From Clostridia bacterium (GTDB lineage: Bacteria > Bacillota > Clostridia > Christensenellales > CAG-138), in the NCBI GenBank assembly GCA_017388175.1, contig JAFOTD010000017.1, positions 14,940 through 78,939 on the forward strand: 64,000 bases of DNA, written 5' to 3'. A program made the position numbers and the translations under genes. Positions within the stretch are counted from its first letter, which is position 1; every line of letters starts with the position of its first letter. The notes below the pieces were generated by a model that was not told the origin of the DNA, ran no database searches, and worked only from the letters and a program-made list of their open reading frames with translations. Below are positions 4,248-22,724 of the stretch, in pieces.

Positions 4248-4336
4248 CTTCCCTTTTCCAGAAATCGACGTCCTAAAGTCTGTTATCCCATATTTCGATG
4301 ATTCAATTACAATCTATCTTCTATTCTTCAATATTG

Positions 4337-6087: not shown

Positions 6088-6350
6088 TCACCAGTAACCA
6101 CTATATCGTTTATAATATACCGGATTGTTGATGTAAACAATCGGAGTCCGAATATTCAGCGGCCCAATGTAATCAACTAACTCCTGCCCCTTAAAACAGT
6201 TTACAATTATAATCCGAGAAAATCGTTTCTCATCAATTTGATGCAATATACGATCGATCAATGGAATTCCGTTTTCCTTGACCATGCATTTCGTATTATT
6301 CCGGGTTTATACTCGTAACCGTTTTCCCATCCCGGCTTCCATTATAATCG
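6088..6350 (-). pseudogene. decayed LicC-like sugar/phosphocholine nucleotidyltransferase remnant
   Basis: Minus strand reads ...ILLAIIMEAGMGKRLRV*, i.e. the G-x-G-x-R-L nucleotidyltransferase signature followed by a stop. After a shift it continues CMVKENGIPLIDRILHQIDEKRFSRIIIVNCFKGQELVDYI... and ends after 65 aa. This is far shorter than the roughly 230 aa expected. Confidence 0.6.
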
Positions 6351-6402
6351 CCAGCAATATCTCATATCTCCTTCTCGAAATGATTAACTAACTCCTCAAT
6401 AA

Positions 6403-7287
6403 TCAACATCGCGTATTGTGATTCTCTTCTATTCGCTCAAAATACTTTAGTCTCTTGACGGCATTCGTCACTTCTCGAATACGATCATTAAGCGGTGGAT
6501 ACTCCTTATAATTTCCGTAAGCCATTTGCAAATAACCATCATAATCCTTTGGAATTCTATATTCGCCAATAGTGGATTTTAAAAGCATTGTACCTGTTGC
6601 CATTTCAATCGGAATGAGATACTCATCCGCAAAGAAACCGGTTGGTACGACGTATCTGCTTTTTTCCAAAGGATACTTATGAATCAATCGTTCAAATACC
6701 ATATCCGTCTTTTTTCCGCTATATAGACCAAAGATTGCTTTAGCAGCTGCAAGTTTTAACGCTCTCTTCCATTTTCCACACGATTCTTCTTTAATTTTTA
6801 CCTTCTTTGTAAAGCGAATCCTAGCACAACGGATTAGTTTTTTACAAAACGTCTTTCGTTCTTTTTCATCATTCGGAGCTCCACAATAATAAAACACGTC
6901 CAAATGCACCGCTGCTGAGTTGTAACGCTTTGGGCATATACGCATGATATAACTTCGCCAACCCTCTGTCGTTTCCTGGCACATCGCATAATAGTCATCA
7001 GATAAATCTTGCTTCAATGCTCTAACCAGTTCCTCTCTTTGAGAAATTGGCACAAATGTGTCAATGTCGGAATCCCACGGAATGAACCCTCCATCGCGGA
7101 TAATTCCCAACAGGGAACCAAAAGTTACGTGATAATTGATACCATTTTTCTCGCATACTCTATGAAACTCTTTCAAAGTCTCCTGAAGAATGCTCTGGTA
7201 TTGTTGCAAATAATGATAATCTTCTTCAAAGTTTGTCGGACAAGTACTCGATTGAAGAACTTCTGCCAAGAATTCATTTGCTTTCAT
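6403..7287 (-). CDS. LicD-family phosphotransferase (phosphocholine / polyol-phosphate transferase)
   Basis: YHVTFGSLLGIIRDGGFIPWDSDIDTFVP carries the LicD DxD-type core, and the length is typical for the family. Confidence 0.8.
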   Translation of the reverse strand: MKANEFLAEVLQSSTCPTNFEEDYHYLQQYQSILQETLKEFHRVCEKNGINYHVTFGSLLGIIRDGGFIPWDSDIDTFVPISQREELVRALKQDLSDDYYAMCQETTEGWRSYIMRICPKRYNSAAVHLDVFYYCGAPNDEKERKTFCKKLIRCARIRFTKKVKIKEESCGKWKRALKLAAAKAIFGLYSGKKTDMVFERLIHKYPLEKSRYVVPTGFFADEYLIPIEMATGTMLLKSTIGEYRIPKDYDGYLQMAYGNYKEYPPLNDRIREVTNAVKRLKYFERIEENHNTRC

Positions 7288-7317
7288 TTTCTGTTCTCCA
7301 CATTTACCCTTTCATAA

Positions 7318-8532
7318 TTATCGTAGATAATTCCTGTATGATCCAAACCGTCCCCCATCAAGCGCGGCAGTTGCAAAGCATTGTTCCGAAATGACAAACA
7401 CAAATGTGATAATAACCCAGTATACCAATCGTCTCATGGAAAAACCCGCAAAATTATACATATACATGCTAATCAGTATCGGAAGCATGGCCAAATTACC
7501 TCTTGCAACAGTTCTGAACACTCTGATCGAAAGAATAACAAACGCAAAAAAGCCCAACAATCCAGAAGCGGCATAAATCTCCAAATAGGTATTATGAAGC
7601 TCTTGCAGTTCGCCAAGCTGCGTCAGTGTATGTTCACCTGGTCCCAAGCCAAAAACGGGGCTTTTTCGTAACACATTTCGGAATGATGACCAGATATAGA
7701 ATCTTCCGATACCGTTTGAATCGTCTGCGATCCACTCGTAAACCATTTGGTAAATCACCCTATAGAAAATCACTGCGATCAGCACGCCGGCTGCGATCTC
7801 CAACGTAATAATAATCGCTCGATTTCTTTTATGTTTCACTCTCTGAACGGTGACGATAACCAATAATACAAGCGATGCCAAAAAAATCGCGGCTAATCCC
7901 GTAGAAGACCTTGTCTGGGTCTCAAGATAAACGGTAATGCCGAAAAAGAGTGTGTTCAACAGGAAGCTTTTTCCCTGCAACGCCCTGCCGGAAAACCAAA
8001 AAGCGATCCCGCATAGCATAACAGCAACCTGATGCGGATTTGTTCCACCGCCAGAATACCTGAGATTATGATACCACAGCGGTGCTCCTAAGAACACTCG
8101 ACCGACCAATAACGAGTAACCGTACAGGAATAAATACCATAGGACGCAAAGTCTGCAGATTACATCAAACAGCTTGATGTTATATTCCAATGAATTCTTT
8201 CTGATCCTTTTGAGCAATACGCAGGAAATAAAAGCCAAATAGATCCATGTTGCCCAACCTTCCGTATTTAATTCCTCAGGTGCAACAACAATACACACGA
8301 GCGTACCGAGAAACATTCCGATCAGAAACAGAATGAAAAAACGAGCATGTTCATCCAACACCAGCCTTTTCATGCTGACATATCGCAACGCCCAAATCAA
8401 GCACAGCACTTCCGCCGGACCGATTTTCCAAATTCTCAAACCTGTCATCGGTGATAATACTGCCCCGAAGACTAATAATAAGTCCCATTTATTTAATTGT
8501 ATCTTCTCATGATTGCGAAATACGGCTCGCAT
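7318..8532 (-). CDS. O-antigen ligase/polymerase-like membrane protein (Wzy candidate)
   Basis: 404-aa polytopic membrane protein with the Wzy_C-like segment HNTYLEIYAASGLLGFFAFVIL. Confidence 0.7.
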   Translation of the reverse strand: MRAVFRNHEKIQLNKWDLLLVFGAVLSPMTGLRIWKIGPAEVLCLIWALRYVSMKRLVLDEHARFFILFLIGMFLGTLVCIVVAPEELNTEGWATWIYLAFISCVLLKRIRKNSLEYNIKLFDVICRLCVLWYLFLYGYSLLVGRVFLGAPLWYHNLRYSGGGTNPHQVAVMLCGIAFWFSGRALQGKSFLLNTLFFGITVYLETQTRSSTGLAAIFLASLVLLVIVTVQRVKHKRNRAIIITLEIAAGVLIAVIFYRVIYQMVYEWIADDSNGIGRFYIWSSFRNVLRKSPVFGLGPGEHTLTQLGELQELHNTYLEIYAASGLLGFFAFVILSIRVFRTVARGNLAMLPILISMYMYNFAGFSMRRLVYWVIITFVFVISEQCFATAALDGGRFGSYRNYLR

Positions 8533-8785
8533 AATCCTTTCATCCGATCACGAACTAGCAAATCCATCTATTGATTCGAAGCGCTAACTATGCGGATAGT
8601 TCTTAATGCTTAGGAATCTATCCCTTCAGATCGCTAAGCTCTCACGCTAATAAATCGGTCTGCCAACAGCCCTAATTGCCCCGCTCTTATTCGCAGCTCC
8701 GTCATCTGAGTAAAAAACCGCCCAAGATCAACAGAGTGTTCATCAAAGCAGAAGTACCGTTTCTTTGCTTTACATGAGAGATAGC

Positions 8786-9841
8786 TCAACCCTTACAAAC
8801 GAAATCACGATACATATTCTTGACGATTTCTTCTGATACGTTGAGCGGCTCTGAATGCCATATACATTCCCTGTCGAAATACCCTCCGGCTTCGTAAACC
8901 GCATGTTGATCGAATCCGTGACACATTTCAATGATCAATCCTTGTCCGGTTTTCTTATCGACAACAAAGTCAAAGCCCATACATTGGACACCGAGAGCGT
9001 CCGCAACACGAAATGCATCTTTTATAATTTGCTCTGTCATCAAATCCCGATCATAATAAAAATCCCCGCTCCCGGATGCTCTGAAATCCGCCTTCCTGGT
9101 ATGCCTGGCAAAATAACCGAGTTTATCACCGACAACGGCAACTTTAAGATCATATCCGTCATTTTCAACAAACTCCTGAAAATAGCAATAATCGCACTCA
9201 CGTCCGAGTCTCTTTGCGTGACTGCGCGCTTTGAGGAAGTTCGGAATCTTCTTAAATCTGGATACGAATGTTTTCCAGTCTCTCGTTGACTGTACCTTCG
9301 AATATGTTTTATAGATCAGACTCGGAGACGAATCATATCCTTTGGAGAACATTCTTTTACAATATGCAAGCGCCTGTTTTTTATCACGCAGGATCTTGAC
9401 ATTTGTTGATCCGGAACCGTTTTTCAGTTTCCCTACGATCGGATATGCTGCTTCATTTTTGAGCCACTCTTCACATTCCTTTTGACGATAGAAAACCCAA
9501 CTTTTGGGGATCGGCGCATTAACAGACTGAAAAGCATACATCTCGGCGATTTTATCGTCAAAATGCCATGCGGTATTATGGTCCGGATATACCTTCAGCC
9601 CCATCTTGGATGCGATATCCAGGATATGCTGTGCCTCTGTTTTGTCAGCAACCACGTAATGACTGTACCACCAAAAAATACCCGAATAATCGGATAGTTT
9701 TGAGATAATATCGGAAGAATAGCAATCTATCGATTCATACGGAATACCGTTTTTCTTCAGATAATCCGTAAAGTCCATTCCGTCCCCCGGACCTGTCCTT
9801 TTTTGTGAAAGCAAATTAATGCATATTCCCAAAGGTTTCAT
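8786..9841 (-). CDS. ATP-grasp domain enzyme
   Basis: YPIVGKLKNGSGSTNVKIL...FQEFVENDGYDLKVAVVGDKL...GVQCMGFDFVVDKKTGQGLIIEMCHGF is an ATP-grasp fold pattern. The track start at 9877 is TTG. ATG 9841 (MKPLGICINL) follows a GGAGG RBS at 8-nt spacing. Confidence 0.7.
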   Translation of the reverse strand: MKPLGICINLLSQKRTGPGDGMDFTDYLKKNGIPYESIDCYSSDIISKLSDYSGIFWWYSHYVVADKTEAQHILDIASKMGLKVYPDHNTAWHFDDKIAEMYAFQSVNAPIPKSWVFYRQKECEEWLKNEAAYPIVGKLKNGSGSTNVKILRDKKQALAYCKRMFSKGYDSSPSLIYKTYSKVQSTRDWKTFVSRFKKIPNFLKARSHAKRLGRECDYCYFQEFVENDGYDLKVAVVGDKLGYFARHTRKADFRASGSGDFYYDRDLMTEQIIKDAFRVADALGVQCMGFDFVVDKKTGQGLIIEMCHGFDQHAVYEAGGYFDRECIWHSEPLNVSEEIVKNMYRDFVCKG

Positions 9842-9864
9842 GGCTTTATCCTCCGCAGTCATTG

Positions 9865-11178
9865 TCACAGTCTCCAATACCTATAACCGGCAGTTTCGTA
9901 TTCCCTGCGGTTCAAAAGCCCCTTCAGATCGAGCAGAACTTTTTTGCCGGAGCCGTAAAATGCGTCGACCCGATCCATTGTAAACGAAGAAAACTCCGTA
10001 TGCGCGACCGCAAGAATGACTGCGTCCATGCCGCGGATCGCATCGATTTCGACAAATTCCACGCCGTACAGCCGTTTTGCCTCATCCGCGTCCGCCTGCG
10101 GGTCCGCTATGACCGGTTGGATTCCGTATTCGCGCAGTTCATTCACGATGTCGATGATCTTGGTATTCCGGGTATCCGGGCAATTCTCCTTGAACGTAAA
10201 TCCGAGGATCGCGACCTTTGCGCCTCTGACGGACTTATCCGCTGCAATCAGGTTCTTTACGCAGTTCTCGGCAACATACTTGCCCATATCGTCGTTGATC
10301 CTGCGGCCGGACAGGATGATCTGGCTGTGGTAGCCGAGCATCTCCGCCTTATAGGTGAGATAATACGGGTCCACACCGATGCAATGTCCGCCGACAAGGC
10401 CGGGATAGAACTTCAGAAAATTCCATTTCGTGCCGGCTGCCTCCAGAACGCTCTTTGTATCGATGCCCATTTTGTTGAAGATAATGGACAGCTCGTTCAT
10501 GAAAGCGATATTGATATCGCGCTGGCTGTTCTCGATCACCTTTGCCGCCTCGGCGACCTTAATGCTCTCCGCCCGATGCACGCCGGCGTCAACAACGAGT
10601 TCGTACACCTTTGCAACGCAATCCAGCGTCTCTTCATCCATGCCGGAAACGATCTTTGTGATCGTCTCGAGGCGATGAACTTTGTCCCCCGGGTTAATTC
10701 GTTCCGGCGAATAGCCGATCTTAAAGTCGACGCCGCACTTCAATCCGCTTTCTCTCTCGAGGATCGGCACACACACGTCCTCGGTTACGCCGGGATACAC
10801 GGTGGACTCGAATACGACGACAGAGCCCTTCGTCAGGTTTCTGCCGAGGATCCTGCTCGCGCCCTCAACGGGGATGAGGTCCGGCGTATGATCGTCGTTG
10901 ACCGGAGTAGGCACAGCGACGATATGGAACTTCGCTTCGCGGAGTTTCGTTTCGTCTGCGGTAAATTCCACAGCTGTTCGGGAAATGATTTCATTCCCGA
11001 CTTCGTGCGTCGGATCGATCCCGTTCTGATACATCTCGATCTTCTCTTCGTTCAGATCGAAACCGATCACATTGATCTTTCGGGCAAACGCCACCGCGAT
11101 CGGCATGCCGACATAGCCGAGACCTACCAGAGACAGTTTTTCTTCTTTTTTGACAAGTTTTTCGTAAAGATCCAGCAT
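9865..11178 (-). CDS. UDP-N-acetyl-hexosamine 6-dehydrogenase (TviB/WbpO-like nucleotide-sugar dehydrogenase)
   Basis: LSLVGLGYVGMPIAVAFARKINVIGFDLNEEKI (N-terminal Rossmann fold), GGHCIGVDPYYL (catalytic Cys region), 437 aa. Confidence 0.85.
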   Translation of the reverse strand: MLDLYEKLVKKEEKLSLVGLGYVGMPIAVAFARKINVIGFDLNEEKIEMYQNGIDPTHEVGNEIISRTAVEFTADETKLREAKFHIVAVPTPVNDDHTPDLIPVEGASRILGRNLTKGSVVVFESTVYPGVTEDVCVPILERESGLKCGVDFKIGYSPERINPGDKVHRLETITKIVSGMDEETLDCVAKVYELVVDAGVHRAESIKVAEAAKVIENSQRDINIAFMNELSIIFNKMGIDTKSVLEAAGTKWNFLKFYPGLVGGHCIGVDPYYLTYKAEMLGYHSQIILSGRRINDDMGKYVAENCVKNLIAADKSVRGAKVAILGFTFKENCPDTRNTKIIDIVNELREYGIQPVIADPQADADEAKRLYGVEFVEIDAIRGMDAVILAVAHTEFSSFTMDRVDAFYGSGKKVLLDLKGLLNRREYETAGYRYWRL

Positions 11179-11218
11179 TCTATATTACTCCATCCGTGCT
11201 TCTGCGTCGATATAATGA

Positions 11219-12310
11219 TTATTTACAGATCAGATCGATTTGCTCCTGATAAGCATCTATGATGATCTGCCTGTTAAACTCCTTTGCAACCTTCTCTCTT
11301 CCGGCAATGCCCATTGCCCTCCGCTCTTCCCAGGGAGTCCGATACATCTTTTCCATCGCATCCTTCAGACTAACGGCGTCCCTGGGCTCGCAGCCGTATC
11401 CCGTTTTGCCCTCCTCAAACGTCTCCTGACAGCCCGGAATCCTGCTTGTAATGACGGGACGTCCGGTGGAAGCCGCTTCCAGCATCACGTTTGCCATTCC
11501 TTCATGATAAGAAGGAAGAACGACGCAATGCGTCTGCGTATAGAAAGCATGCACGTTGCTTTGCGGACCGTGATATTTCACGATGTTCCGCTTTTCAAAT
11601 TCGGCAAGCATTCCGGTATAATCCTCATCGCTGCCGCCAACCACGTCCAAAAAGACCTTCTTTCCTTCGTCGGCCAGCTTTCCGACTGCAGCCAAAAGCT
11701 CCTCAATTCCCTTGTCCTTCATCACTCTTCCGACGAAAAGATATCGGAAACAGGACCGGTCCGGGGGATACGCCTCATACCGATGCGTCTCAACGTTGAC
11801 CCCGGAACCCGGTATCAGCTTTACTTTGCCGCGTACGATCTTGTTGTCGGTAAAGAGCTTCATGTTCTGCCCGTTCTGAAAGAAAACGCACCGCGCGCGC
11901 TTCAACCCGATCCGATACAGCGTCAAAGAAAGCTTTTTCAGTAACCCCCCGTTTTCAATGGTTGTCCCGAGACCGGTCACGTTCGCCAGATAGGGAATTC
12001 TCTTTAACCGGCACGCCAGACCGCCGTATACGTTGCATTTAATCGTATATGTCAAAACCACATCCGGCCTGATTTGCTTAATGAGGTTCAAGTAGGTCAT
12101 CAACAGTTTCAGATCCTTGATCGGATTCGTCCCGCGGCGGTCCAGCGAATTACAAGGGACAAATCGACAGCCGAGCGACTCAATCTCCTTTATAAACCCG
12201 CCGTCCGGTACGCAGAAAAAGACTTCGTCGGATTTTACGAACTCTTCCAAAACCTCTTTCCTGAATCTATAGAGTCCAATATCACTGTTTGCCAGAATCA
12301 AAACTCGCAT
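11219..12310 (-). CDS. GT4-family glycosyltransferase
   Basis: MRVLILANSDIGLYRFRKEVLEEF...VVLPSYHEGMANVMLEAASTGRPVITSRIPGCQETFEEGKTGY carries the EX7E-type GT4 C-terminal motif. The track ORF (to 12544) has a spurious N-terminal extension that overlaps the upstream gene. Confidence 0.85.
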   Translation of the reverse strand: MRVLILANSDIGLYRFRKEVLEEFVKSDEVFFCVPDGGFIKEIESLGCRFVPCNSLDRRGTNPIKDLKLLMTYLNLIKQIRPDVVLTYTIKCNVYGGLACRLKRIPYLANVTGLGTTIENGGLLKKLSLTLYRIGLKRARCVFFQNGQNMKLFTDNKIVRGKVKLIPGSGVNVETHRYEAYPPDRSCFRYLFVGRVMKDKGIEELLAAVGKLADEGKKVFLDVVGGSDEDYTGMLAEFEKRNIVKYHGPQSNVHAFYTQTHCVVLPSYHEGMANVMLEAASTGRPVITSRIPGCQETFEEGKTGYGCEPRDAVSLKDAMEKMYRTPWEERRAMGIAGREKVAKEFNRQIIIDAYQEQIDLICK

Positions 12311-12389
12311 TATTATGCAACTACCTACCGTTGATCTCTGTCTGTCTTCAAATCTTTTTCTCTTTGGGGATAAATAGTTCGTCCTCGGC

Positions 12390-13037
12390 TTATTCCAAAA
12401 ATCTGATCGGTTTAGCCGGGCTTCCGACAGCAGTGCATCTGGGTGGAATGTCCTTAACCACAGTAGCACCTGCGCCGACAATAGAATAGTCGCCGACGGT
12501 CTTGTCCTGAATGATTTGCGTGCCCGTCCCCATCTCGACCGCATGCCCGATATTTGTGATCCCGGATATGTTCACAGATGGGTATAATGTTACAAAATCG
12601 TGAAGAACAGCATCATGCCCGATTGTGCAGTCAAGATTGATAATAACGTGGCTGCCGATTGAGATATTCACCGTAATAACCGTATGTGCACAGATAATTG
12701 TTCCTTCTCCAATTGTCACAAGACCAGACATTTCAACCGATGGATCAATCACCGTAGCGAATCTAATGTTTGGATTGATGTTTTTTAATTTACAAACAAT
12801 CTTCTCACGAACTCGAGATGCGCCTACTGCACAAACATAATAGGCGTCAGGATACTCCCTAACTTTTTCTGTTCCGCCAAGCACATAATATCCATTGATT
12901 ACGGTTCCTTGAATAGCTTCATTATCATCCATAAAGCCAAGGAGATTCCACATTGGAGAGACCTTATTAATGCGCTCGACCAACCAAGCAACTTCACGAC
13001 CGAATCCGCTTGCGCCGAAAACTACCAAATCCTTCAT
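12390..13037 (-). CDS. NeuD/PglD-family hexapeptide-repeat sugar N-acetyltransferase
   Basis: MKDLVVFGASGFGREVAWLVERI...LGFMDDN plus a C-terminal left-handed beta-helix repeat region. Confidence 0.85.
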   Translation of the reverse strand: MKDLVVFGASGFGREVAWLVERINKVSPMWNLLGFMDDNEAIQGTVINGYYVLGGTEKVREYPDAYYVCAVGASRVREKIVCKLKNINPNIRFATVIDPSVEMSGLVTIGEGTIICAHTVITVNISIGSHVIINLDCTIGHDAVLHDFVTLYPSVNISGITNIGHAVEMGTGTQIIQDKTVGDYSIVGAGATVVKDIPPRCTAVGSPAKPIRFLE

Positions 13038-13675
13038 AGCTTTGTCTTCTCCTGTCTCCCCATAAACTCAGTCATCGTCGACTCGCCTGCGCTGGAGATT
13101 CCTTCCCGCTTTAAAACGGTTTTGACTGTTTGAAAAATGATTTTCCAATCGCCGGAGAATTTGATGTGATCGACGTATTTTACATCCCAGTCGAACTTAT
13201 CCTCCCAGTCGATCGCATTGCGCCCATGGACCTGCGCAAGTCCGGTGAACCCGGGGCGAACTTCATGTCTTCTTGCCTGATGTGCGTTGTAACGATCCAA
13301 ATACTTTACGAGCAGAGGACGCGGACCGACGACTGCCATGTCGCCTTTCAGAACATTGAACAGTTCCGGAAGCTCATCCAGCGATGAAGAACGCAGCTTC
13401 TTTCCGAACGGAGTCAACCGCATCTCATCCGGCAGCAAATCGCCGTTTTCATCCGTTTCGCTCGTCATGGATCTGAATTTATACAGGTTAAAGATCTTTC
13501 CGTCCTTTCCGGGGCGTTCCTGTTTGAAAATCACCGGCGCGCCGAGCTTCACGCGAACGAGAATCGCGACGATCAGCAGCACGGGCGACATTGCGATCAA
13601 AGCGAGCAGCGCGCAGAAAAAATCCTGCGGTCGCTTGATATACTTTTCATATGGTCCGTAAGGCTTATGCTTCAT
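13034..13675 (-). CDS. small monotopic phosphoglycosyl transferase (PglC/WbaP C-terminal-type initiating sugar transferase)
   Basis: IKRPQDFFCALLALIAMSPVLLIVAILVRVKLGAPVIFKQERPGKDGKIFNLYKFRSM...DELPELFNVLKGDMAVVGPRP is the canonical bacterial sugar transferase sequence. Confidence 0.9.
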   Translation of the reverse strand: MKHKPYGPYEKYIKRPQDFFCALLALIAMSPVLLIVAILVRVKLGAPVIFKQERPGKDGKIFNLYKFRSMTSETDENGDLLPDEMRLTPFGKKLRSSSLDELPELFNVLKGDMAVVGPRPLLVKYLDRYNAHQARRHEVRPGFTGLAQVHGRNAIDWEDKFDWDVKYVDHIKFSGDWKIIFQTVKTVLKREGISSAGESTMTEFMGRQEKTKL

Positions 13676-13687
13676 ACCGTCCTCCGA

Positions 13688-14959
13688 TTATCTGAAGCAC
13701 CGGTGGATGATATCGATGATGCGATCCTGCTGATCGGGCGTCATCTTGTTGTCGGAGGGCAGGCAGAGACCGCGACGGAAGACGTCCGCGCTGACGTCGA
13801 CGCCGTCGTCGGTCGATACGAATGCGTTAGAGCGATAGATCGGCTGCAGGTGCATCGGCTTCCAGATCGGGCGGCCCTCGGCATTGAACGCGGTGATCGC
13901 GTCAAGGATCTCCATCGGGCAGCTCTTGCCGGGCACGGATCGGTACTCATAGGTCGTTTCTCCTCTGGTCTGCGGTTCCATTGCATCCTCGTCGATCAGG
14001 ATGCAGGACAGCCAGAAATTCGGACGGCTCTTTTCCGCATCGAACGGATTCATCCGGACGGGAAGATCGGAAAGGCCGGCTTTATATCGCTCGTAAACGG
14101 CTTTTTTCTGCGCGATGTGCTCTTCGATATACGGGATCTGACCGCGCACAAGACCGGCGATGATGTTGCTCATGCGATAGTTATAGCCGAGCTCCGCATG
14201 CTGATACCAAGGCGCGGCTTCGCGGCTCTGCGTAGACCATTTGCGGACCTTATCGGCGTCTTCCCCGCTGTCGGTCAGGAACATGCCGCCCGCGCTTCCG
14301 GTGATGATCTTGTTTCCGTTGAACGAAATGCAGTTAAAATCGCCGAGCGTGCCGGTCTCGACCCATTCGCCGTTCATCTTATACTTTGCGCCGAGCGATT
14401 CCGCCGCGTCCTCGACGATCAGAGCGCCGTGCGCGTCCGCAATGCGTCGGATCTCCTCCATCTTGCCGGGCGTGCCGTACAGATGCGCAGCAACGATCAG
14501 GCGAACGTCCGGATATCGCTCAAACGCCTTTTCCAACGCTGCGGGAGACATGTTCCAGGTCTCCGGCTCGGTATCGATGAAAATCGCTTCTCCGGCTTCG
14601 TATGCGACGGGATTGATAGAGGCGTCGAACGTCATGTCGGAGCAGAAAACGCGCCGTCCCTGAAGCGCTCCTTCGTTCGTGCGCGGCTGTCCGTATAGCT
14701 TCTCTCCGGCGAGCTTGGTCGCAAGATGCAGCGCCGCCGTGCCGCAGGACAATGCGACCGCATACCTGACGCCGAGACGCGCTGCCATCTGTTTTTCCAC
14801 TTCGTTGATGTTCGCGCCGAGTGTGCTGACCCAGTTCGTCCGGAATGCTTCGTTTATCCAATGCTGTTCATCGCCGTGCATCGTCGGAGAAGAAAGCCAT
14901 ACCTTTTGTGCAAACGGTTCGATGCCTGCAAAACGCGGGTCATTTGAAAATCTGTTCAT
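13688..14959 (-). CDS. DegT/DnrJ/EryC1-family PLP-dependent sugar aminotransferase (PglE/EpsN-like)
   Basis: WLSSPTMHGDEQHWINEAFRTNWVSTLGANINEVEKQMA...SFNGNKIITGSAGGM contains the lysine of the PLP site. 423 aa. Confidence 0.85.
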   Translation of the reverse strand: MNRFSNDPRFAGIEPFAQKVWLSSPTMHGDEQHWINEAFRTNWVSTLGANINEVEKQMAARLGVRYAVALSCGTAALHLATKLAGEKLYGQPRTNEGALQGRRVFCSDMTFDASINPVAYEAGEAIFIDTEPETWNMSPAALEKAFERYPDVRLIVAAHLYGTPGKMEEIRRIADAHGALIVEDAAESLGAKYKMNGEWVETGTLGDFNCISFNGNKIITGSAGGMFLTDSGEDADKVRKWSTQSREAAPWYQHAELGYNYRMSNIIAGLVRGQIPYIEEHIAQKKAVYERYKAGLSDLPVRMNPFDAEKSRPNFWLSCILIDEDAMEPQTRGETTYEYRSVPGKSCPMEILDAITAFNAEGRPIWKPMHLQPIYRSNAFVSTDDGVDVSADVFRRGLCLPSDNKMTPDQQDRIIDIIHRCFR

Positions 14960-15066
14960 GAAACGCTCCTCAGATCGTTATTTCCCTTACTGTACAATGC
15001 TGTTATCGTTAGCATAGATTGTCCGAATGACAGCAAACCGCCCACGGAAAACCCGCGAGCGTTGAT

Positions 15067-15540
15067 TCAATCTGTATTCTTCGCTTTTCGGTCACGCAAA
15101 GCAAGCGCTGCTTTTCGGATAAGAAGCCCGAGCAAAGTGCCGGCGACTATGCCGATCAGGTCAATCCAAACGTCCCCGATCTCCGCGCCGCGTCCGGAAA
15201 GCATCTGAAGGCTTTCATCCAGAAATGCCGAAGAAAAACCGGCGCCGACACAATTAAGGACATTCCCCCGAAAGCAAAGTAAAAGCAGCGCGGATAGAAC
15301 CGCAAACTCCAGAACGTGCGCCGCCTTTCGGACCGCATGCTGTGAAGGCGGCTGACTGCCGAACTGCCTGAAGATCGGACCCAGTATTTTTTCCGTCACC
15401 CAACCGCTTTCGTCAGCGGATACCGATTGCGGGAGGATCGATTGAACAAATATGAATACGAGGACCAGCGTTGTTCCGGCCAGCAGCACCTTGCGTCGTT
15501 TGGAAATCCGCCTTGTGCCGATCAAATTTGTCTCACCCAA
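15067..15540 (-). CDS. VanZ-family membrane protein
   Basis: AAHVLEFAVLSALLLLCF...DESLQMLSGRGAEIGDVWIDLIGIVAGTLLG are VanZ signatures. The start codon is TTG, overlapping the upstream stop by 8 nt, so the start is uncertain. Confidence 0.7.
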   Translation of the reverse strand: MGETNLIGTRRISKRRKVLLAGTTLVLVFIFVQSILPQSVSADESGWVTEKILGPIFRQFGSQPPSQHAVRKAAHVLEFAVLSALLLLCFRGNVLNCVGAGFSSAFLDESLQMLSGRGAEIGDVWIDLIGIVAGTLLGLLIRKAALALRDRKAKNTD

Positions 15541-17590
15541 CTGCGGTCAGATCATCCTTCTTGCTGTTGTCGGGTTGACCAAACACCTTCATTGCCTGCT
15601 CTCCGCTGCGAACGGGATGATAGGTCGGAACCATCCCGATCAGCAAATCCCGGATATGGGCGTCATTCGCATAAGCAGCCTTCATCAGCGTGCCAAGGTT
15701 TTTAAACAACAAATCCCGATCAAACGGAACCGGCGCCCCGATGTGAATCAGATCGTTATCCGTCTTTTTCAGTCCTTCCTCCGCCATCAGCTTTTCTTCG
15801 TACAGTTTTTCACCTGGACGAAGTCCCGTATACTTGATCTTGATATCTACGTCAGGTTTCAGCCCTGCCTGCTTAATCAGGTTTTTGGCAAGTGTGTCGA
15901 TCTTAACCGGGCTGCCCATATCGAGAATAAAAATCTCTCCGCCGTTTGCATAGGTACCCGCAAGCATCACGAGGCTGACCGCTTCCGGAATCGTCATAAA
16001 ATACCGGATTACGTCCGGATGCGTGACGGTCACCGGCCCGCCCTTTGCGATCTGCTTCTTGAACAGCGGAATGACGGAACCGTTGCTGCCGAGCACGTTT
16101 CCGAACCGTACGGCAACGAATTCGGTTCGCGTCGATCTGAACACGCTTCCCGTGCCGTCCTTATCCGCGTTCTCAATCCCTTGATGCGTGAAAAGCTGCG
16201 GAATCTCGCTTGCTCTGCCTGCCTTGATTTTTGCGTCAAAGCATTGTACGATCATTTCACACAGGCGTTTGCTTGCGCCCATGACGTTGGTGGGATTGAC
16301 AGCCTTATCCGTAGAAATCAGAACGAATCGTTCACAGCCGTGAACCATTGCCGCATACGCGGTCTTGTACGTGCCGAAAACGTTATTCTTGATCGCTTCG
16401 CACGGGCTGTCTTCCATCAGCGGAACATGCTTATGCGCCGCAGCATGATAAACGATCTGCGGACGATACGTATCGAACACCTTAAACATTCTGCGGCTGT
16501 CGCGCACGGATCCGATCAGAACGACAAGATTCAGCGTCGGGTAACGGTCCTTAAGTTCCTGCTGGATATCGTACGCGCTGTTTTCATAAATATCGAAAAT
16601 GATCAGTTGCTTCGGTGCATGAGCGGCAATCTGTCGGCAAAGCTCGCTGCCGATGGATCCGCCTCCGCCGGTGACGAGAACGGTCTTCCCGTTGATAAAC
16701 GAGTAAACGCCGGAAAGATCCGGGCGGATGGGATCGCGCCCGAGAAGATCCTCGACCGCGACGTCCTTCATCATGCTCACAGATACCTGTCCGGAAATAA
16801 GCTGGTAGATGCCCGGAAGCTGCTTCAGTTCGCAGTCCGTTTCGCTGCAGATTGCAAGAATGTCCCGCTTCTGTTCCGCTGTTGCGCTCGGGATCGCGAT
16901 ACAGATCTTGTCGATGCCGTATTTATTGACGCTTGCGAGGATTTCATCCCGTCCGCCGACGATCGGTACGCCTTCCAGAAAACAATTCTTCTTCGCCGGA
17001 TCGTCGTCGATAATGCAGACGGCTCTGTCATGCGAACTCGGGTTCGCAATCATATCTCTTAAGAGCAGCTGGCCGGCGTTGCCTGCGCCGATCAGCATTA
17101 CGCGCTTTTGTTCCGCGCGATTCCGCATCCGTCTCTGTCTCCAGCTCAGAACCAATCGTCCGGAAAAACGAATCCCGGTCAGCAGAACAGCCTGAATCAG
17201 CGCGCCGCCGAAATAATAGGTCATCGGCATCCGCCCGAGCAGCAGCGTTATGGCGACCGCATGGATTACGGAAAGGAGAACGGAAGCTTCGATTGTACGC
17301 AAAAGCTCCCGGATGCCTACGTACCGCAGCAGCGTTCTGTACAGGCGGAACGCCCAAAGAACGATGACGCAGAATGCCGCGTAGAACAGAATAAACTTCG
17401 CAAACGCATTCCAGTATTTCTGATCAATGCTCGAAAAGATAAAGTCAAACCGCATCCAAAGCGCAACGAAATAGGCAACGCACGCAGCGACAAAATCGCA
17501 CGCGCACATCAGGACGGCAATGCCGATTCTTTGTCTTTCCGCCCGCTTCTGCAGCATCTGATTCAGTTTTTCCTTGTTTTGATCTTTCAT
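15533..17590 (-). CDS. membrane-anchored CapD/PglF-like UDP-sugar 4,6-dehydratase
   Basis: Four N-terminal TM segments followed by VLVTGGGGSIGSEL and the CapD-type polysaccharide biosynthesis domain. The track start at 17599 is GTG; the first ATG is at 17590. Confidence 0.85.
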   Translation of the reverse strand: MKDQNKEKLNQMLQKRAERQRIGIAVLMCACDFVAACVAYFVALWMRFDFIFSSIDQKYWNAFAKFILFYAAFCVIVLWAFRLYRTLLRYVGIRELLRTIEASVLLSVIHAVAITLLLGRMPMTYYFGGALIQAVLLTGIRFSGRLVLSWRQRRMRNRAEQKRVMLIGAGNAGQLLLRDMIANPSSHDRAVCIIDDDPAKKNCFLEGVPIVGGRDEILASVNKYGIDKICIAIPSATAEQKRDILAICSETDCELKQLPGIYQLISGQVSVSMMKDVAVEDLLGRDPIRPDLSGVYSFINGKTVLVTGGGGSIGSELCRQIAAHAPKQLIIFDIYENSAYDIQQELKDRYPTLNLVVLIGSVRDSRRMFKVFDTYRPQIVYHAAAHKHVPLMEDSPCEAIKNNVFGTYKTAYAAMVHGCERFVLISTDKAVNPTNVMGASKRLCEMIVQCFDAKIKAGRASEIPQLFTHQGIENADKDGTGSVFRSTRTEFVAVRFGNVLGSNGSVIPLFKKQIAKGGPVTVTHPDVIRYFMTIPEAVSLVMLAGTYANGGEIFILDMGSPVKIDTLAKNLIKQAGLKPDVDIKIKYTGLRPGEKLYEEKLMAEEGLKKTDNDLIHIGAPVPFDRDLLFKNLGTLMKAAYANDAHIRDLLIGMVPTYHPVRSGEQAMKVFGQPDNSKKDDLTAVG

Positions 17591-17635
17591 ATGCAACACA
17601 CCGTCGTCCGAAGCCGTGCGTCTTTTAAACGCGCC

Positions 17636-19237
17636 TTATCGGAAATCAACGTATACTTCGTTAATATAATTTGCCTGATCGTACCATCTGGTCAGATCAC
17701 GGTTCCATTCGAGCATGATAGGCTTATCAAACGTCTTGTTTAGCTCGTTCGCCGATTTTTTCAATTTGGCTTCCAGATTCGTCAGATCCTGATAAATATC
17801 CGTCTGCTCCTGCTTCTCTTCTGCGGTCAGCGGAATGGATTCGTCGTAATGCGCCTGCATCCACTGATCGGCGTATGCAAACTGTTTTTGCAGGTTCTGA
17901 TAATCCTTCCAGCAGGCTGCATATGCAGTCTTCTGCTCCTCGCTCATCGAATCCGCGTCCGCCAAACCGTGTACCGCCTCAAAAAGCCGTTCCGTGATCG
18001 TCATATACTGCATCGCAAGGAAACCGCCTTTGTGAAGGAACCGTTCATACACGACGGAATTCACACCGATCGGCGCGGCGTCAATGCCGTAAACCTCTTT
18101 CAAGATATCCTTGCGCGCCTGTTGATCAATAAAGCAGAACGCCCAATCGTACTTCAGGGAAATCTCCCCCTGAATACTGTAGGTTTTGATGCTGTCCGGG
18201 TCGATATCCTTCGCAAAGTTGACGAGCGACGTCGTCTGTGAGAAATTCGTATTCGTGTATACGTTATCGTCCATGGTCTTTAAAAGATCCGGAATCATGG
18301 AAAGTTTCCCTTCCTGCTTCAGCTTTTTAAAGATCGCAACCAGCATTTTGCGCTGCCGCGCAGTTCGTTTGGAATCTAGACCGCCTGCAGTCTTGCGCAT
18401 CCGCATGTAGGCCATGACGCCCATACCGTCCAGATGCTGCATTCCGGGGCTGATTCTGCGTCCGTCAAACAGGTATAGCTTGATATCGACGTTGAAGTCA
18501 ATTCCGCCGATCATATCGACCAGATCGATGAGCGCCTGAAAATCGACGCCGTAATAATACGGAATCGAAACGCCGCCGATCCATTCCTCTGCCGTGCGGC
18601 ACGACAGCTCAAAGCCTGCCTTGGGATCATTCATGCCGCCGCCGACGTTGAAAACGCCGTTGAATTTATAGAAGCCGCGATACCCCGGAATTGTGGTCAT
18701 ACAGTCACGCGCAATAGAGATCAGACTGACTTCCTTCGTGTCGAAATTCACCGCGACGATGACATTCGCATCCGTGTGCGGCATGGTTCCGCTCGTCGAG
18801 CGGCCGCTCTCATACGCGTCGATTCCGAACAGCGCGATGTTGACAATCCCAGAAAGCTGATCGGAGCCGTTTCCGTCGGCCGTGTGTTCCGCTCCGCCAT
18901 TCTCCGGAGTCGCCGTAGGCATAAACGTAGGAATCGGTTTCTCATTCGGGTCGTCGGCCGGAAGGTACGCGTCGATATCAAACAAAGGCGTTGCTTCCGC
19001 CGTCGGTTCCGTCGTTACGCGCGAAGATGTCTTAAAGAACAGTCCCGGACGGTTGCAGATATGCCATGCGTATACGCCGCCGCCGATCAGAGCAAGCACC
19101 ACGATCCCAAGAAGGGACCAAAGAATGATTCTCGTGGCCTTGGATTTTTTCTTTTTCTGTTTTTTCGGCTGTTTTTCCGCTTCCGGTTCTTCGAACAGAT
19201 CAATCTCCGGCACAGCCTGTGTATCTTTTTCTTCCAT
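17636..19237 (-). CDS. LytR-CpsA-Psr (LCP) family glycopolymer phosphotransferase with long C-terminal extension
   Basis: NIALFGIDAYESGRSTSGTMPHTDANVIVAVNFDTKEVSLISIARD is the LCP core. There is an N-terminal TM anchor, and the 533 aa length is longer than typical LCP proteins. Confidence 0.8.
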   Translation of the reverse strand: MEEKDTQAVPEIDLFEEPEAEKQPKKQKKKKSKATRIILWSLLGIVVLALIGGGVYAWHICNRPGLFFKTSSRVTTEPTAEATPLFDIDAYLPADDPNEKPIPTFMPTATPENGGAEHTADGNGSDQLSGIVNIALFGIDAYESGRSTSGTMPHTDANVIVAVNFDTKEVSLISIARDCMTTIPGYRGFYKFNGVFNVGGGMNDPKAGFELSCRTAEEWIGGVSIPYYYGVDFQALIDLVDMIGGIDFNVDIKLYLFDGRRISPGMQHLDGMGVMAYMRMRKTAGGLDSKRTARQRKMLVAIFKKLKQEGKLSMIPDLLKTMDDNVYTNTNFSQTTSLVNFAKDIDPDSIKTYSIQGEISLKYDWAFCFIDQQARKDILKEVYGIDAAPIGVNSVVYERFLHKGGFLAMQYMTITERLFEAVHGLADADSMSEEQKTAYAACWKDYQNLQKQFAYADQWMQAHYDESIPLTAEEKQEQTDIYQDLTNLEAKLKKSANELNKTFDKPIMLEWNRDLTRWYDQANYINEVYVDFR

Positions 19238-19397: not shown

Positions 19398-20954
19398 TCA
19401 GAGAAGGTCCGAAAGCAGTGCCTCGGTTTCCTTCATAGCAGCGCCCCACTCCTCCGGGTAACGCTGTCTGACTGTCTGCCATTCCGAATAACCGGTCTTC
19501 GTACCGTGAATATCGCTTCCGACGGCAACGATTTTTCCATCCCTCATCCAATCGCGCAGATATGCGTTCTGCCCGTGCTTTATCAGCGCGGAAACGTTTA
19601 CCTGCCCTTTGACCCGCTCCATGCCCAGCAGAGCTTCGACCTTCTTCCGATCATACCGGTCTACGTGCGCGAGCACGATCTGCAGGTCGGTGCGTTCGCA
19701 CAAGGCCTCAACCGAATCAATCAGCCGATCCGACCAGCTTGTGAAAGGCATCTCCAGCAGAAGAATATCGGTTCCCATCAGACAAAGGCTTTCGATATTC
19801 GGCAGCCGCTCAATTCCCTCAAACGCCAGCACTTCCGCCCCGAGAATGACTCTCGGACTGTCCGCGTCCATATTTCTCTTCAGCTCCAGCCAACTGCGCG
19901 CACGCTGTTCCAGAAATTCTTCCACGTTGCTCTGCTGACCGTAGAAATGCGAAGTCGCACAGATCACTTTTACGCCGGCTTCCTTTGCGAGCTGAAGCTG
20001 CTGCATCGAATTCTCAATGCTGTCGCTTCCGTGGTCAAGACCCGGCAGGATATGCGCATGAAAGTCGATCTGCGTCGTATTCCTTTTTTGCGCCGTTCTT
20101 GCGCCGGAGCCGGTATTCGCTTTTGCGCCCGTTCCGTAATCCGGTGTGCTGCCGTATTGATATCCGTACTTGTAACCGTACCGGTTGCCGTATCGGTATC
20201 CGTACTTATAGCCGTACTTATAGCCGTATTTGCCGGTCTGTTTGAGATTCAGATCGTTGATAACGATGCCGCAGATCCGGCTGCCTGCGCTCTGCAGCGT
20301 ACTCTCCATTTCGGACAGATCTCTCTGCTTCGTCCTCGCGGAACGTGTCACCAGCACCATCCCGTCGACAAGCCTGGACACGATTTGCGCGTCGGCGACT
20401 TCGTTGGTCGGAGGCGTATCCATAATGATATAATTATATTGCTTTCTGAATCGTTCCATCGCCCTCTGAAACGCCGCGGACGCAAGCATTTCCGAAGGAT
20501 TCGGGGGAATCTTGCCGCACGGAATGATCGAAAGCGGAATGCCGTCCACGCTGTAAACGTCACATACGTCCACGTTTGCGATCAGGTCGGAAAGCCCGTT
20601 CTTCGTGTGGATGTGCCAGAGCCTTGCAATATTCGGTTTTCGCATGTCGCAGTCGATTAGCAGCGTTTTCTTGCCGAGCATCGCAAAGGATACCGCGATA
20701 TTGGAAGCCGTAAGGCTCTTGCCCTCGGACGGATTCGCGCTCGTAACACCGAACACCCTGCAACCGCGATCGTCCATGGAGGCAACGGAATACATCAGAT
20801 TCGTTCGAAGCTGTACGTATGCCTCACGGATTGCGAACGCGCTGCTTTCCGTCAGAATCTTCTTGCGGTTTTCCTTGACCTGCGAACGCTCTTCCTGCTT
20901 GCTGCTGCCTTTTGACCGATGAAACATCAGTTTTTTTCCGTTCGTGTTACTCAT
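19398..20954 (-). CDS. fusion protein: BY-kinase (CpsD/CapB-like) + tyrosine-rich tail + PHP-family phosphotyrosine phosphatase (CpsB-like)
   Basis: Walker A TSANPSEGKS, Walker A' LLIDCDMRKP and Walker B YIIMDTPP. The Y-cluster is GKYGYKYGYKYGYRYGNRYGYKYGYQYG. Then comes IDFHAHILPGLDHGSDS..., the CpsB PHP motif, in the same reading frame with no stop. ATG 20954 overlaps the cpsC-like stop (ATGAGTAA). Confidence 0.85.
   Translation of the reverse strand: MSNTNGKKLMFHRSKGSSKQEERSQVKENRKKILTESSAFAIREAYVQLRTNLMYSVASMDDRGCRVFGVTSANPSEGKSLTASNIAVSFAMLGKKTLLIDCDMRKPNIARLWHIHTKNGLSDLIANVDVCDVYSVDGIPLSIIPCGKIPPNPSEMLASAAFQRAMERFRKQYNYIIMDTPPTNEVADAQIVSRLVDGMVLVTRSARTKQRDLSEMESTLQSAGSRICGIVINDLNLKQTGKYGYKYGYKYGYRYGNRYGYKYGYQYGSTPDYGTGAKANTGSGARTAQKRNTTQIDFHAHILPGLDHGSDSIENSMQQLQLAKEAGVKVICATSHFYGQQSNVEEFLEQRARSWLELKRNMDADSPRVILGAEVLAFEGIERLPNIESLCLMGTDILLLEMPFTSWSDRLIDSVEALCERTDLQIVLAHVDRYDRKKVEALLGMERVKGQVNVSALIKHGQNAYLRDWMRDGKIVAVGSDIHGTKTGYSEWQTVRQRYPEEWGAAMKETEALLSDLL
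20151..20234 (-). repeat. in-frame 12-nt tandem repeat encoding the [KRQ]YGY tyrosine cluster
   Basis: Minus strand reads GGC AAA TAC GGC TAT AAG TAC GGC TAT AAG TAC GGA TAC CGA TAC GGC AAC CGG TAC GGT TAC AAG TAC GGA TAT CAA TAC GGC. Confidence 0.9.
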
Positions 20955-22050: not shown

Positions 22051-22596
22051 CTATCCGATCGTATCCGGCTCCGGCGATTCCCTTTGCAGCCTATCGAAAT
22101 CCGTGTTTCCTTCGATATACTCAATAGAGCACCAGATATTGTGAAACAGAGCTTCTCCGTCTCCGAGCGCAATCTGCACCTGTCTCCGGCTTTTATTGAC
22201 CTTCAGCACCTTGGCGTCCATGCCGACAAGCGGTCCGCCGACAAACGAAATCTTCGTTCCGACCTTAATCACCTGCGAAACGTCGACGACGCCGCCGTAC
22301 CGTTTCAACCAATGAACAAACGCCAGATCCTCTCCGCGCAGCGCGCAGTTCCCGTCCTCATAGCGAAGCGCCTTTAATACGCCGGAATACCTGCGGATGC
22401 GTTCCCAGTCCGGCTGATCCTCGCTTTCAAAAAAGACATATCCCGGCAGAAGCCGTGACCTCGATCGTCTGAGTGTGCCGTTTTCCAGTTTCACGCGCAC
22501 CGCATACGGCGAAAAAGCGGATCGCCCGCTTCGTTCCAACAGTGCAATGACCGCCCCTTCCTGTCCGCTTTTGCAAAACAGGCAATAGCATTCCAT
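22051..22596 (-). CDS. NusG-family specialised paralog (LoaP/UpxY-like processive antiterminator)
   Basis: NGN-like N-terminus MECYCLFCKSGQEGAVIALLERSG...LLPGYVFFESE and KOW-like VGTKISFVGGPLVGMDAKVLKVNKSRRQVQIAL. ATG 22596 follows GGGAG. The track ORF (to 22707) is N-terminally over-extended. Confidence 0.75.
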   Translation of the reverse strand: MECYCLFCKSGQEGAVIALLERSGRSAFSPYAVRVKLENGTLRRSRSRLLPGYVFFESEDQPDWERIRRYSGVLKALRYEDGNCALRGEDLAFVHWLKRYGGVVDVSQVIKVGTKISFVGGPLVGMDAKVLKVNKSRRQVQIALGDGEALFHNIWCSIEYIEGNTDFDRLQRESPEPDTIG

Positions 22597-22666
22597 GCGC
22601 GTTTCTCCCTTCTTTTTCGTGTTCCCATTATAAAAAATCCCGCCTTTGTTTGTCAAGACGAACGCC

Positions 22667-22695
22667 TTGCGATCCGTTCCGGTACGGTATATAAT
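22667..22695 (+). promoter_or_regulatory. candidate promoter of the esterase gene
   Basis: TTGCGA-N17-TATAAT, 30 nt upstream of ATG 22725 (RBS AAAGGAG). Confidence 0.5.
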
Positions 22696-22724
22696 ATGGA
22701 AAAGCAACCGAAAGGAGCCATTCC

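Follow-up and report, generated by a model that had tools for sequence, protein, structure and literature searches.

The window, a stretch of 64,000 nucleotides from a gut or rumen Clostridia bacterium, encodes the tyrosine kinase that governs capsule-sugar assembly and its resetting phosphatase as one protein. The gene lies on the minus strand, which the earlier note had left unstated, within a predicted complete Wzx/Wzy operon comprising CpsC-like, LCP, initiating transferase, Wzy and flippase genes. The genes and the elements of the fused protein are the following:

22051..22707, minus strand: NusG paralogue (Pfam NusG) at the head of the operon, in the same gene order in L001
20947..21753, minus strand: CpsC/CapA-like membrane modulator with Pfam Wzz and GNVR domains, directly upstream of the fusion
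19398..20954, minus strand: fused BY-kinase::PHP-phosphatase gene, a single ORF of 518 aa plus stop
20214..20825, minus strand: kinase catalytic domain, aa 44-247 (TIGR01007, Foldseek, dN/dS 0.04-0.09)
20715..20741, minus strand: Walker A SANPSEGKS, aa 72-80 (K79), read directly from the sequence
20640..20663, minus strand: Walker A' LLIDCDMR (D101, D103, R105), read directly
20409..20429, minus strand: Walker B IIMDTPP, aa 176-182 (D179), read directly
20136..20231, minus strand: tyrosine cluster (aa 242-273), consisting of KYGYKYGYKYGYRYGNRYGYKYGYQYG at aa 242-268 plus Y273, with 13 Tyr and YG repeats
20073..20135, minus strand: linker, aa 274-294, its junction compared with the split relatives L003, L005 and L006
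19401..20072, minus strand: PHP-type phosphotyrosine phosphatase domain, aa 295-518 (PF19567, YwqE/CpsB matches, motifs)
17636..19237, minus strand: LCP (CpsA-like) glycopolymer transferase, the next gene downstream (PF03816 at 96.8 bits, TIGR00350 above cutoff)
3258..17599, minus strand: remainder of the Wzx/Wzy-dependent polysaccharide cluster, assigned by Pfam

A σ70-like promoter with a 12/12 match was found at 22656-22627 on the minus strand. The modulator scored 144 bits with TIGR01006, under the cutoff of 296, which makes it a relative of this family rather than a curated member. Its stop overlaps the start codon of the fusion gene, ATG 20954 (ATGAGTAA), the two genes sharing 8 nt, and they are predicted to be translationally coupled through this overlap. 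A GGGAGG Shine-Dalgarno sequence lies 5' of the same ATG, which we preferred over a longer TTG alternative at 21014. The LCP gene is syntenic in L001, and the rest of the cluster carries, in this order by Pfam, Polysacc_synt_2, VanZ, DegT, Bac_transf, PglD-like, GT4, UDP-sugar dehydrogenase, Wzy_C, LicD, a MurJ/Wzx-like flippase and an epimerase.

Pfam assigned a P-loop (AAA_31/ParA) and a CpsB_CapC domain to the fusion product, and the scores of both halves lie far above chance level. The earlier note had described one uninterrupted ORF holding a kinase, a tyrosine cluster and a PHP phosphatase in that order; all three were found intact, every sequence string it quoted was recovered in the translation, and the linker that it put at about 25 aa counts 23 residues between the final Tyr and the PHP motif, or 28 if measured from where the quoted cluster stops, in agreement with its figure. 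Kinase and phosphatase are not the separate ORFs of a two-gene organisation in the window, where a single ORF covers both with no internal start.

The kinase half belongs to the CapB/CpsD-type tyrosine autokinases, as TIGR01007 matched aa 44-247 with 177.4 bits (cutoff 108.05). In a sequence search of the PDB, the N-terminal half best matched the CapA/CapB chimeras (E 4e-38), and Foldseek with the AF2 model superposed its kinase half on the CapA/B chimera 4jlv at TMt 0.79 and rmsd 1.7 Å; the matches to 4jlv, 4jmp and 3bfv had E values of about 1e-17 to 1e-16 and TMt of 0.73-0.82, identifying a CapB-like fold. The Walker A (GK[ST]), A' (hhhhDxDxR) and B (hhhhDxxP) signatures are all present and are kept in every relative that extends over this part of the protein. 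With its flanks, Walker A' reads (LLI)DCDMRKP (aa 98-107); D101 as well as D179, P181 and P182 of Walker B are invariant in our alignment A1, and DCD[ML]R is kept in the 5 members covering it, the frameshifted fragment P0016 having no such region. The ring-interface motif EX2RX2R appears as EAYVQLR, with the E and the last R kept. Since the central Arg is replaced by Val, octamer formation by the fusion kinase is not assured, and CpsD likewise departs from this motif (PMC2422856). A tyrosine-rich stretch directly follows the catalytic core, as expected for a BY-kinase, and is internal here rather than C-terminal. In the DNA, a 12-nt tandem repeat in 6.8 copies underlies this stretch, which is disordered in the AF2 model (pLDDT <50).

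The C-terminal half was assigned to PF19567 (CpsB_CapC) with 80 bits against the Pfam gathering threshold of 27 (E 2.4e-22, aa 296-490), and its best PDB sequence matches were YwqE (E 1.7e-7) and CpsB (E 7e-5). PHP motif I (DFHAHILPGLDHG, aa 297-309) holds H299/H301, motif II H336, motif III H430/R433/Y434 and motif IV D481/H483. The His, Asp and Arg residues of motifs I-IV, whose roles are metal binding (His/Asp) and catalysis (Arg) (PMC6759763), align to YwqE/CpsB and are invariant in A1, as are D307 and E401, while E374 is Asp in P0002. The best 50 matches of the Foldseek search with the whole model were to the kinase domain only, and the PHP fold is therefore supported by sequence profiles and motifs. 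The Cps4B equivalog model NF041488, with its cutoff of 400, scored just 40.8 bits; we therefore class this half, by its sequence profile, as a member of the PF19567 family and not a Cps4B orthologue. The low equivalog score could be taken as a sign that one half is a pseudo-enzyme, the PHP domain merely docking the tail or the kinase merely scaffolding. GTKTG following motif IV, where CpsB has DGRPP, points the same way, and BY pseudokinases do exist, EcpK in Myxococcus being an example. However, the Walker motifs and the His/Asp/Arg residues of PHP motifs I-IV are kept in the fused clade as well as in the split relatives, and dN/dS is low in both halves, which makes this explanation very unlikely.

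The open junction between the halves recurs in no fewer than five assemblies that are independent of one another and stem from different samples; their full-length proteins are 72-78% identical to that of the window (78-83% over the two domains alone). The fused genes of the window, L001, L004, P0002 and P0003 formed a single clade in the kinase tree, the PHP tree and the concatenated tree, all neighbour-joining and carrying no bootstrap support, with the split L003/L005/L006 as sister. Other full-length fused proteins have been deposited, among them NCBI MDO4835404.1, encoded on a contig of 656 kb. Both domains evolve under strong purifying selection (dN/dS 0.04-0.13 at dS ~0.9-1.5; 0.07-0.13 for the PHP domain). 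A frameshift or assembly error was a concern raised in the earlier note, and an artefact of this kind, in which two truly separate genes are joined in the window by a missed stop or an indel, has its precedents. The apparent fusion of P0016/L084 stems from two frameshifts, which ruled out P0016 as a third fusion lineage; and P0004 runs out of frame just past PHP motif I. Separately, 18 of the 71 split pairs are a single stop codon short of fusion. For the window, however, an open junction shared by at least five assemblies, purifying selection on both halves in spite of a synonymous divergence of about 1, and the absence from 5/5 fused members of an internal ATG that split relatives keep leave the artefact effectively refuted and its probability negligible.

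The linker retains traces of its history. In split relatives, the ATG of the phosphatase stands at codon -4 from the DFHAH motif; in the window the ancestral ATG has become ACG, and an AAAGGA remnant of the RBS is kept. From this comparison, the linker evidently derives from what in a split ancestor were a stop codon, an intergenic spacer, an RBS and a start codon. It evolves fast (dN/dS ~0.4) and is disordered in the model, which predicts two confidently folded domains with disorder between them at aa 239-289; at a pTM of 0.53, the inter-domain geometry carries no confidence. Across the fused clade, the disordered tether from the last Tyr to the PHP domain spans 21-38 residues, and the Tyr count varies between 6 and 15. 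The comparison shows an origin in which the stop codon of the kinase gene was lost, the short spacer came to be translated in frame as the disordered linker, and the ATG of the phosphatase decayed afterwards, so that the phosphatase would now be made only as part of the kinase chain.

The chain might instead yield two working proteins, through cleavage of the linker or internal translation of the phosphatase, and then function like the split system. A disordered, fast-evolving linker is possibly accessible to proteases, the AAAGGA remnant lies 5' of the PHP domain in the window, and L002, a recent Faecalibacterium-like fusion, still has both RBS and ATG. Against this, no ATG, GTG or TTG occurs in the 20 codons preceding the PHP domain in the window, the fused clade shares no start at this place, and its linkers show no conserved cleavage motif. 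The ATG is gone in every fused member, hence independent translation was apparently not maintained, and we regard two separate products as unlikely. A promoter-like match inside the gene at 20038-20010 (9/12) is at chance level.

Fusion of the two genes is rare. The earlier note had stated that kinase and phosphatase are normally separate proteins, which agrees with 126 of 127 adjacent pairs. Of 72 genome pairs, 71 had the kinase gene directly followed by a separate PHP gene, with a median spacer of 17 nt, as did all 55 metagenome pairs, and this adjacency is taken as the ancestral arrangement. Thirty-two of the 71 split pairs are in the same frame, and the tblastn ranking probably favours in-frame pairs. 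The tblastn spans over both domains in genome contigs resolved into adjacent separate genes after an ORF and HMM check, except for L004. With none of its 55 pairs fused, the metagenome scan did not recover the fused clade itself (best identity 54%) and is therefore evidence on rarity only. Among the best 150 matches in a 50%-identity library of 1.84 billion representative proteins no fusion was found, and ten long candidates from this library had no CpsB domain by Pfam; the library is an imperfect test of frequency, as it hides the window's own fused clade behind single-domain representatives. Full-text literature searches together with BY-kinase surveys and reviews yielded no description of a natural kinase-phosphatase fusion, although such absence is not proof. 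The earlier note had named an already common and characterised architecture as fatal to its idea; one of 127 kinase-to-phosphatase pairs in the genome and metagenome samples was fused, and the literature searched gave no description. The fusion is genuine and conserved, but an uncommon departure from a familiar two-gene arrangement. It seems mutationally easy yet is seldom kept, and its retention in the window's clade may reflect selection; it may also be selectively neutral and not functionally distinct.

An independent and recent case is the Faecalibacterium-like P0069 fusion (L002), which shares the kinase::PHP architecture and has a Wzz gene upstream. Over the two domains it is 96% identical to the split L028/L029, from which its junction differs by the single TAA→TAT change that produced the fusion, and unlike the window's clade it keeps the RBS and ATG of the phosphatase. 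This fusion is present in 6 assemblies.

The closest known systems are CapA/CapB/CapC of S. aureus and TkmA/PtkA/PtpZ (YwqC/D/E) of B. subtilis, with which the window shares the order of modulator, BY-kinase and PHP phosphatase, the kinase fold (4jlv, TMt 0.79), Walker A/A'/B, a Tyr cluster and PHP motifs I-IV. It differs from them in that kinase and phosphatase form one polypeptide with no internal start, in its much longer cluster of 13 Tyr with YG repeats as against 4 in CapB (PMC2422856), and in a phosphatase of a shorter subtype, the standalone relatives of which have about 226 aa. CpsA-B-C-D of S. pneumoniae likewise opens a Wzy-dependent capsule locus with an LCP protein, a PHP phosphatase, a modulator and a kinase. 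In pneumococcus, however, cpsB precedes cpsC/D, whereas the window has modulator, kinase::phosphatase and LCP, and the window's scores for the Cps4B and LCP_trans_Cps2A equivalogs are far under their cutoffs. Proteobacterial Wzc resembles the fusion in joining neighbouring components and in the same model of ring and Y-cluster cycling, but in Wzc the modulator is fused to the kinase while the phosphatase Wzb is a separate LMW-PTP of unrelated fold.

Taken together, the locus probably represents a fixed fusion of adjacent capB/cpsD-like BY-kinase and capC/cpsB-like PHP genes that tethers the phosphatase to the substrate tail of the kinase. Its working can be proposed from the literature on CapAB/Wzc and CpsB/YwqE, with kinase, phosphatase and ring formation assigned by homology. 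First, the CpsC-like membrane protein encoded upstream would offer its cytoplasmic tail as the docking site for the kinase half, and unphosphorylated kinase would assemble into a ring. Second, a neighbouring subunit would phosphorylate each tyrosine tail in trans, and phosphorylation would loosen the ring. Third, the Mn-dependent PHP domain, 21-38 residues past the last tyrosine, would dephosphorylate its own or a neighbour's tail and so reset the system. Such a cycle could set the pace at which the operon's own polysaccharide is polymerised by the Wzy-dependent route, exported and attached by LCP. The intramolecular phosphorylation proposed in the earlier note conflicts with the CapB octamer, in which the tail of the neighbouring subunit is phosphorylated in trans (PMC2422856); from the length of the disordered tether, only the dephosphorylation step could plausibly take place in cis. 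The fusion would fix the kinase:phosphatase stoichiometry at 1:1, and because the tethered phosphatase would be held at very high local concentration, resetting would be independent of phosphatase expression and diffusion. Unless regulated, a permanently tethered phosphatase could also drive a futile ATP cycle.

A stronger version, following the oscillator or timer suggested in the earlier note, would make the protein an adaptive self-resetting timer. Covalent coupling would turn the two enzymes into an autonomous oscillator of phosphorylation and dephosphorylation, driven by ATP, and the length of the tether and the number of tyrosines would fix its period, which in turn would determine polymer chain length. 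The substrate tail does sit between both catalytic domains, models of BY-kinase function already have it oscillate between assembly and disassembly, possibly in a bistable way (PMC9800525), and retention of an easy but rarely kept fusion may reflect selection. Tyr434 in motif III is equivalent to Y159 of Php1, whose phosphorylation was suggested from Y-to-F mutants to be inhibitory (PMC6759763), and would allow a possible delayed negative feedback. Yet tethered opposing enzymes alone lead to a steady state, not an oscillation; the free variation within the clade (6-15 Tyr, a tether of 21-38 aa) speaks against a tuned period; and the sister clade, with an equally long Tyr cluster, manages with split genes. 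We thus hold the timer to be improbable. The same low expectation applies to a phospho-cycle in which a Tyr434-inhibited PHP domain would act only after ring disassembly, time polymerisation and export and set polymer length, and it is similarly doubtful that feedback through Tyr434 would remove the need for external control of the phosphatase. Returning to the tethered-phosphatase reading, the fusion adds tethering and 1:1 stoichiometry but is not demonstrably a new principle, because BY-kinases with separate phosphatases are all generally modelled already as assembling and disassembling in a cycle, possibly a bistable one (PMC9800525).

As a natural, selected and obligate 1:1 fusion, the protein offers 'Rosetta-stone' evidence for a PHP phosphatase acting directly on the kinase tail. 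Capsule and EPS assembly under BY-kinases is thought to require continual cycling between phosphorylated and dephosphorylated states. The fusion indicates that function tolerates a phosphatase kept permanently beside the kinase, which favours cycling models over switch models. We know of no solved structure of a BY-kinase–PHP phosphatase complex, and the fusion is a ready single-chain construct for structural and kinetic work on it. The NCBI label of MDO4835404.1 is only "tyrosine autokinase", and since public records name the autokinase alone, genomes with the fusion look as if they had no phosphatase.

The kinase::phosphatase fusion in the window, proposed in an earlier note made from the sequence alone, is real, conserved and obligate. 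It is encoded by a single ORF of 518 aa at 19398-20954 on the minus strand, and every string quoted in that note was found in the fusion sequence. The ribosome-binding site GGGAGG precedes the ATG, which shares bases with the stop codon of the gene upstream (ATGAGTAA).

Motifs of the fusion protein
aa 72-80, kinase half: Walker A, SANPSEGKS
aa 98-105, kinase half: Walker A', LLIDCDMR
aa 176-182, kinase half: Walker B, IIMDTPP
aa 243-273: YG-repeat tyrosine cluster, 13 Tyr
aa 297-309, phosphatase half: PHP string DFHAHILPGLDHG

Pfam placed P-loop families at aa 68-239 and CpsB_CapC (PF19567) at aa 296-490 (80 bits, threshold 27), and NCBIfam assigned TIGR01007, 'polysaccharide biosynthesis tyrosine autokinase' (177 bits, cutoff 108). 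By sequence, the N-terminal half matched the S. aureus CapA/CapB chimeras (E 4e-38) as well as VpsO, Etk, Wzc and BceF, and the C-terminal half matched YwqE and CpsB. Mutagenesis of Php1, CpsB and YwqE showed that the PHP-phosphatase motifs matter (PMC6759763), and the fusion has every one of them: I (H299/H301), II (H336), III (H430/R433/Y434) and IV (D481/H483). These residues, D307 and E401 showed no variation among fused proteins; E374 is replaced by Asp in the fused homologue P0002. An AlphaFold2 model (57-sequence alignment, mean pLDDT 83.5) displayed two confident domains separated by a disordered stretch (aa 239-289), with a pTM of 0.53, at which the model gives no fixed inter-domain orientation; its kinase half superposed on CapA/B structures with TMt 0.79-0.82 and rmsd 1.7-1.9 Å.

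The earlier note had worried about an assembly frameshift, but independent fused homologues and low dN/dS demonstrated that the fusion is not an artefact. Full-length fused homologues with 72-78% identity were recovered from independent sources, including Logan SRR33675034 (P0001/L001), ENA ERZ27256923 (P0002/L085), ENA ERZ28654832 (P0003/L086), the GenBank MAG Clostridia bacterium RGIG7792 from water-buffalo reticulum (L004), and JGI/IMG members together with NCBI MDO4835404.1, located on a 656-kb contig. Gene order at locus L001 matches that of the window (esterase, NusG paralogue, Wzz, fusion, LCP). In neighbour-joining trees of kinase, PHP and concatenated sequences, the five fused sequences (window, L001, L004, P0002 and P0003) formed one clade, and L003, L005 and L006, in which the genes are separate, formed its sister clade (66-69% identity over two domains for L005 and L006). 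At dS 0.9-1.5, pairwise dN/dS values among the window, L001 and L004 were 0.04-0.09 in the kinase, against 0.07-0.13 in the phosphatase, and the linker evolved much faster than both domains.

At the sequence level, comparison with these split relatives reveals the route by which the junction formed. In the split relatives the kinase ends directly past the Tyr cluster, the spacer of 18-40 nt carries an AAGGA-type RBS, and the phosphatase ATG stands four codons ahead of the conserved Asp (M-x-x-I-D-F-H-A-H); in L005 the two genes share a frame and are separated by one stop. This ancestral ATG is ACG, TCG or TCC in all five fused genes, across which the junction comparison found no conserved alternative phosphatase start, so the phosphatase is produced solely in fusion with the kinase.

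The fusion is a rare and apparently undescribed variant of a well-known system. We sampled one genome per GTDB species and classified the best 80 loci by ORFs plus HMMs; 71 of 72 kinase→PHP pairs were separate adjacent genes (median spacer 17 nt), and L004 was the only true fusion. All 55 pairs in the best 80 metagenome loci were separate. A profile of fused proteins searched against 5.8 billion proteins retrieved as intact fusions only P0001-3 and the Faecalibacterium-like P0069, together with many stand-alone relatives of 64-82% identity (kinases of ~265-287 aa or phosphatases of ~226 aa), and none of the top 150 matches in a 1.84-billion representative library was fused. A BY-kinase phylogenomic survey (PMC4007543) and a review from 2022 (PMC9800525) note that the genes co-localise but mention no natural fusion, full-text literature searches found no natural kinase-phosphatase fusion, and NCBI labels one fused member only 'polysaccharide biosynthesis tyrosine autokinase'.

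P0069 (L002), present in six assemblies, is an independent fusion, 96% identical over two domains to the split pairs of two Faecalibacterium MAGs (L028 and L029), from which its junction differs by one TAA→TAT change; the phosphatase RBS and ATG are kept. P0016 (L084 3700-5071) was rejected as a third fusion, with one frameshift in the kinase core and another in the Tyr repeat, and P0004 runs out of frame just past PHP motif I; these apparent fusions or truncations are probably assembly errors or pseudogenes. Among the 71 split pairs, 18 (including L005, L007, L009-L012, L023, L026 and L028) are in frame with a single intervening stop, so in many species fusion is one substitution away; 32 share a frame against about one third expected, a figure that tblastn ranking may bias. 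We infer that such a fusion, seldom kept though so accessible, is usually neutral-to-deleterious, which would make its fixation in the window's clade notable. Other odd apparent BY-kinase fusions (kinase+GT2, kinase+Polysacc_synt_2, kinase+GT1 and LCP+kinase; P0010, P0022, P0036, P0029 and P0108) occur in the protein database and may be genuine or frameshift artefacts.

Fusion of adjacent cooperating genes is mechanistically unsurprising; this one is useful as naturally occurring evidence that kinase and phosphatase are coupled directly, and as an experimental handle. The gene structure, its conservation, the selection on it and the intactness of the catalytic motifs are demonstrated. How the fusion works can be modelled on CapAB/Wzc, in which kinase domains assemble into a ring while unphosphorylated, the Tyr tail of each subunit is inserted into the active site of its neighbour, the ring comes apart on phosphorylation and a phosphatase resets it; polymer production requires this cycling (PMC2422856, PMC9800525). 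By analogy, the fusion would pass through the same steps, from ring assembly and neighbour-tail phosphorylation to dissociation and phosphatase reset, with polymer production depending on the cycle; phosphorylation itself is expected to be intermolecular, and not intramolecular in the way that the earlier note had suggested. Since the CapB C-terminus lies at the ring's outer face, near exposed active sites (PMC2422856), a C-terminal PHP domain on the flexible tether of 21-38 residues found in the fused clade can plausibly be accommodated and could reach either its own tail or that of a neighbour. A 1:1 stoichiometry and very high local phosphatase concentration are expected. A tandem repeat with a 12-nt unit (20151-20232, 6.8 copies, 74% matches) encodes the Tyr cluster, which is equally long in split relatives and contains 6-15 Tyr across fused relatives; this suggests slippage-driven length variation. 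The variable Tyr number and tether length within the clade argue against a finely tuned timer such as the oscillator on which the earlier note had speculated. The invariant Tyr434 (codon 19653-19655, motif III DRYD) corresponds to Php1 Y159, whose phosphorylation by the cognate kinase was suggested to be inhibitory from Y-to-F mutants (PMC6759763), and by this speculative analogy it might be a reciprocal control point.

The fusion lies within a complete Wzx/Wzy-dependent polysaccharide operon, and the 64-kb window contains no further kinase or PHP gene.

Features of the operon (all minus strand)
22656-22627: perfect (12/12) σ70-like promoter
22051-22707: NusG paralogue
21916-21888: second promoter-like site (11/12)
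20947-21753: CpsC-like modulator
19398-20954: fusion
17636-19237: LCP transferase
15533-17599: PglF/CapD-like dehydratase
15067-15540: VanZ
13688-14959: DegT aminotransferase
13034-13675: initiating sugar transferase
12390-13037: PglD-like acetyltransferase
11219-12544: GT4 glycosyltransferase
9865-11178: UDP-sugar dehydrogenase
8786-9877: ORF, 363 aa, no Pfam match at E ≤ 0.001
7318-8532: Wzy
6403-7287: LicD
4337-5869: flippase
3258-4247: epimerase

The NusG paralogue heading the operon, also present in L001, may be a LoaP/UpxY-style antiterminator; because the 12/12 promoter falls inside its listed ORF, its translation probably begins at an ATG further downstream. A lysine riboswitch (RF00168, 43348-43524, plus strand, 78.6 bits) is unrelated to the fusion. 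Among the loci collected, L016, L019 and L021 carry a Faecousia-like Clostridia capsule locus under the MAG names 'Escherichia coli', 'Absicoccus sp.' and 'Bacteroidaceae bacterium', and these contigs are likely mis-binned.
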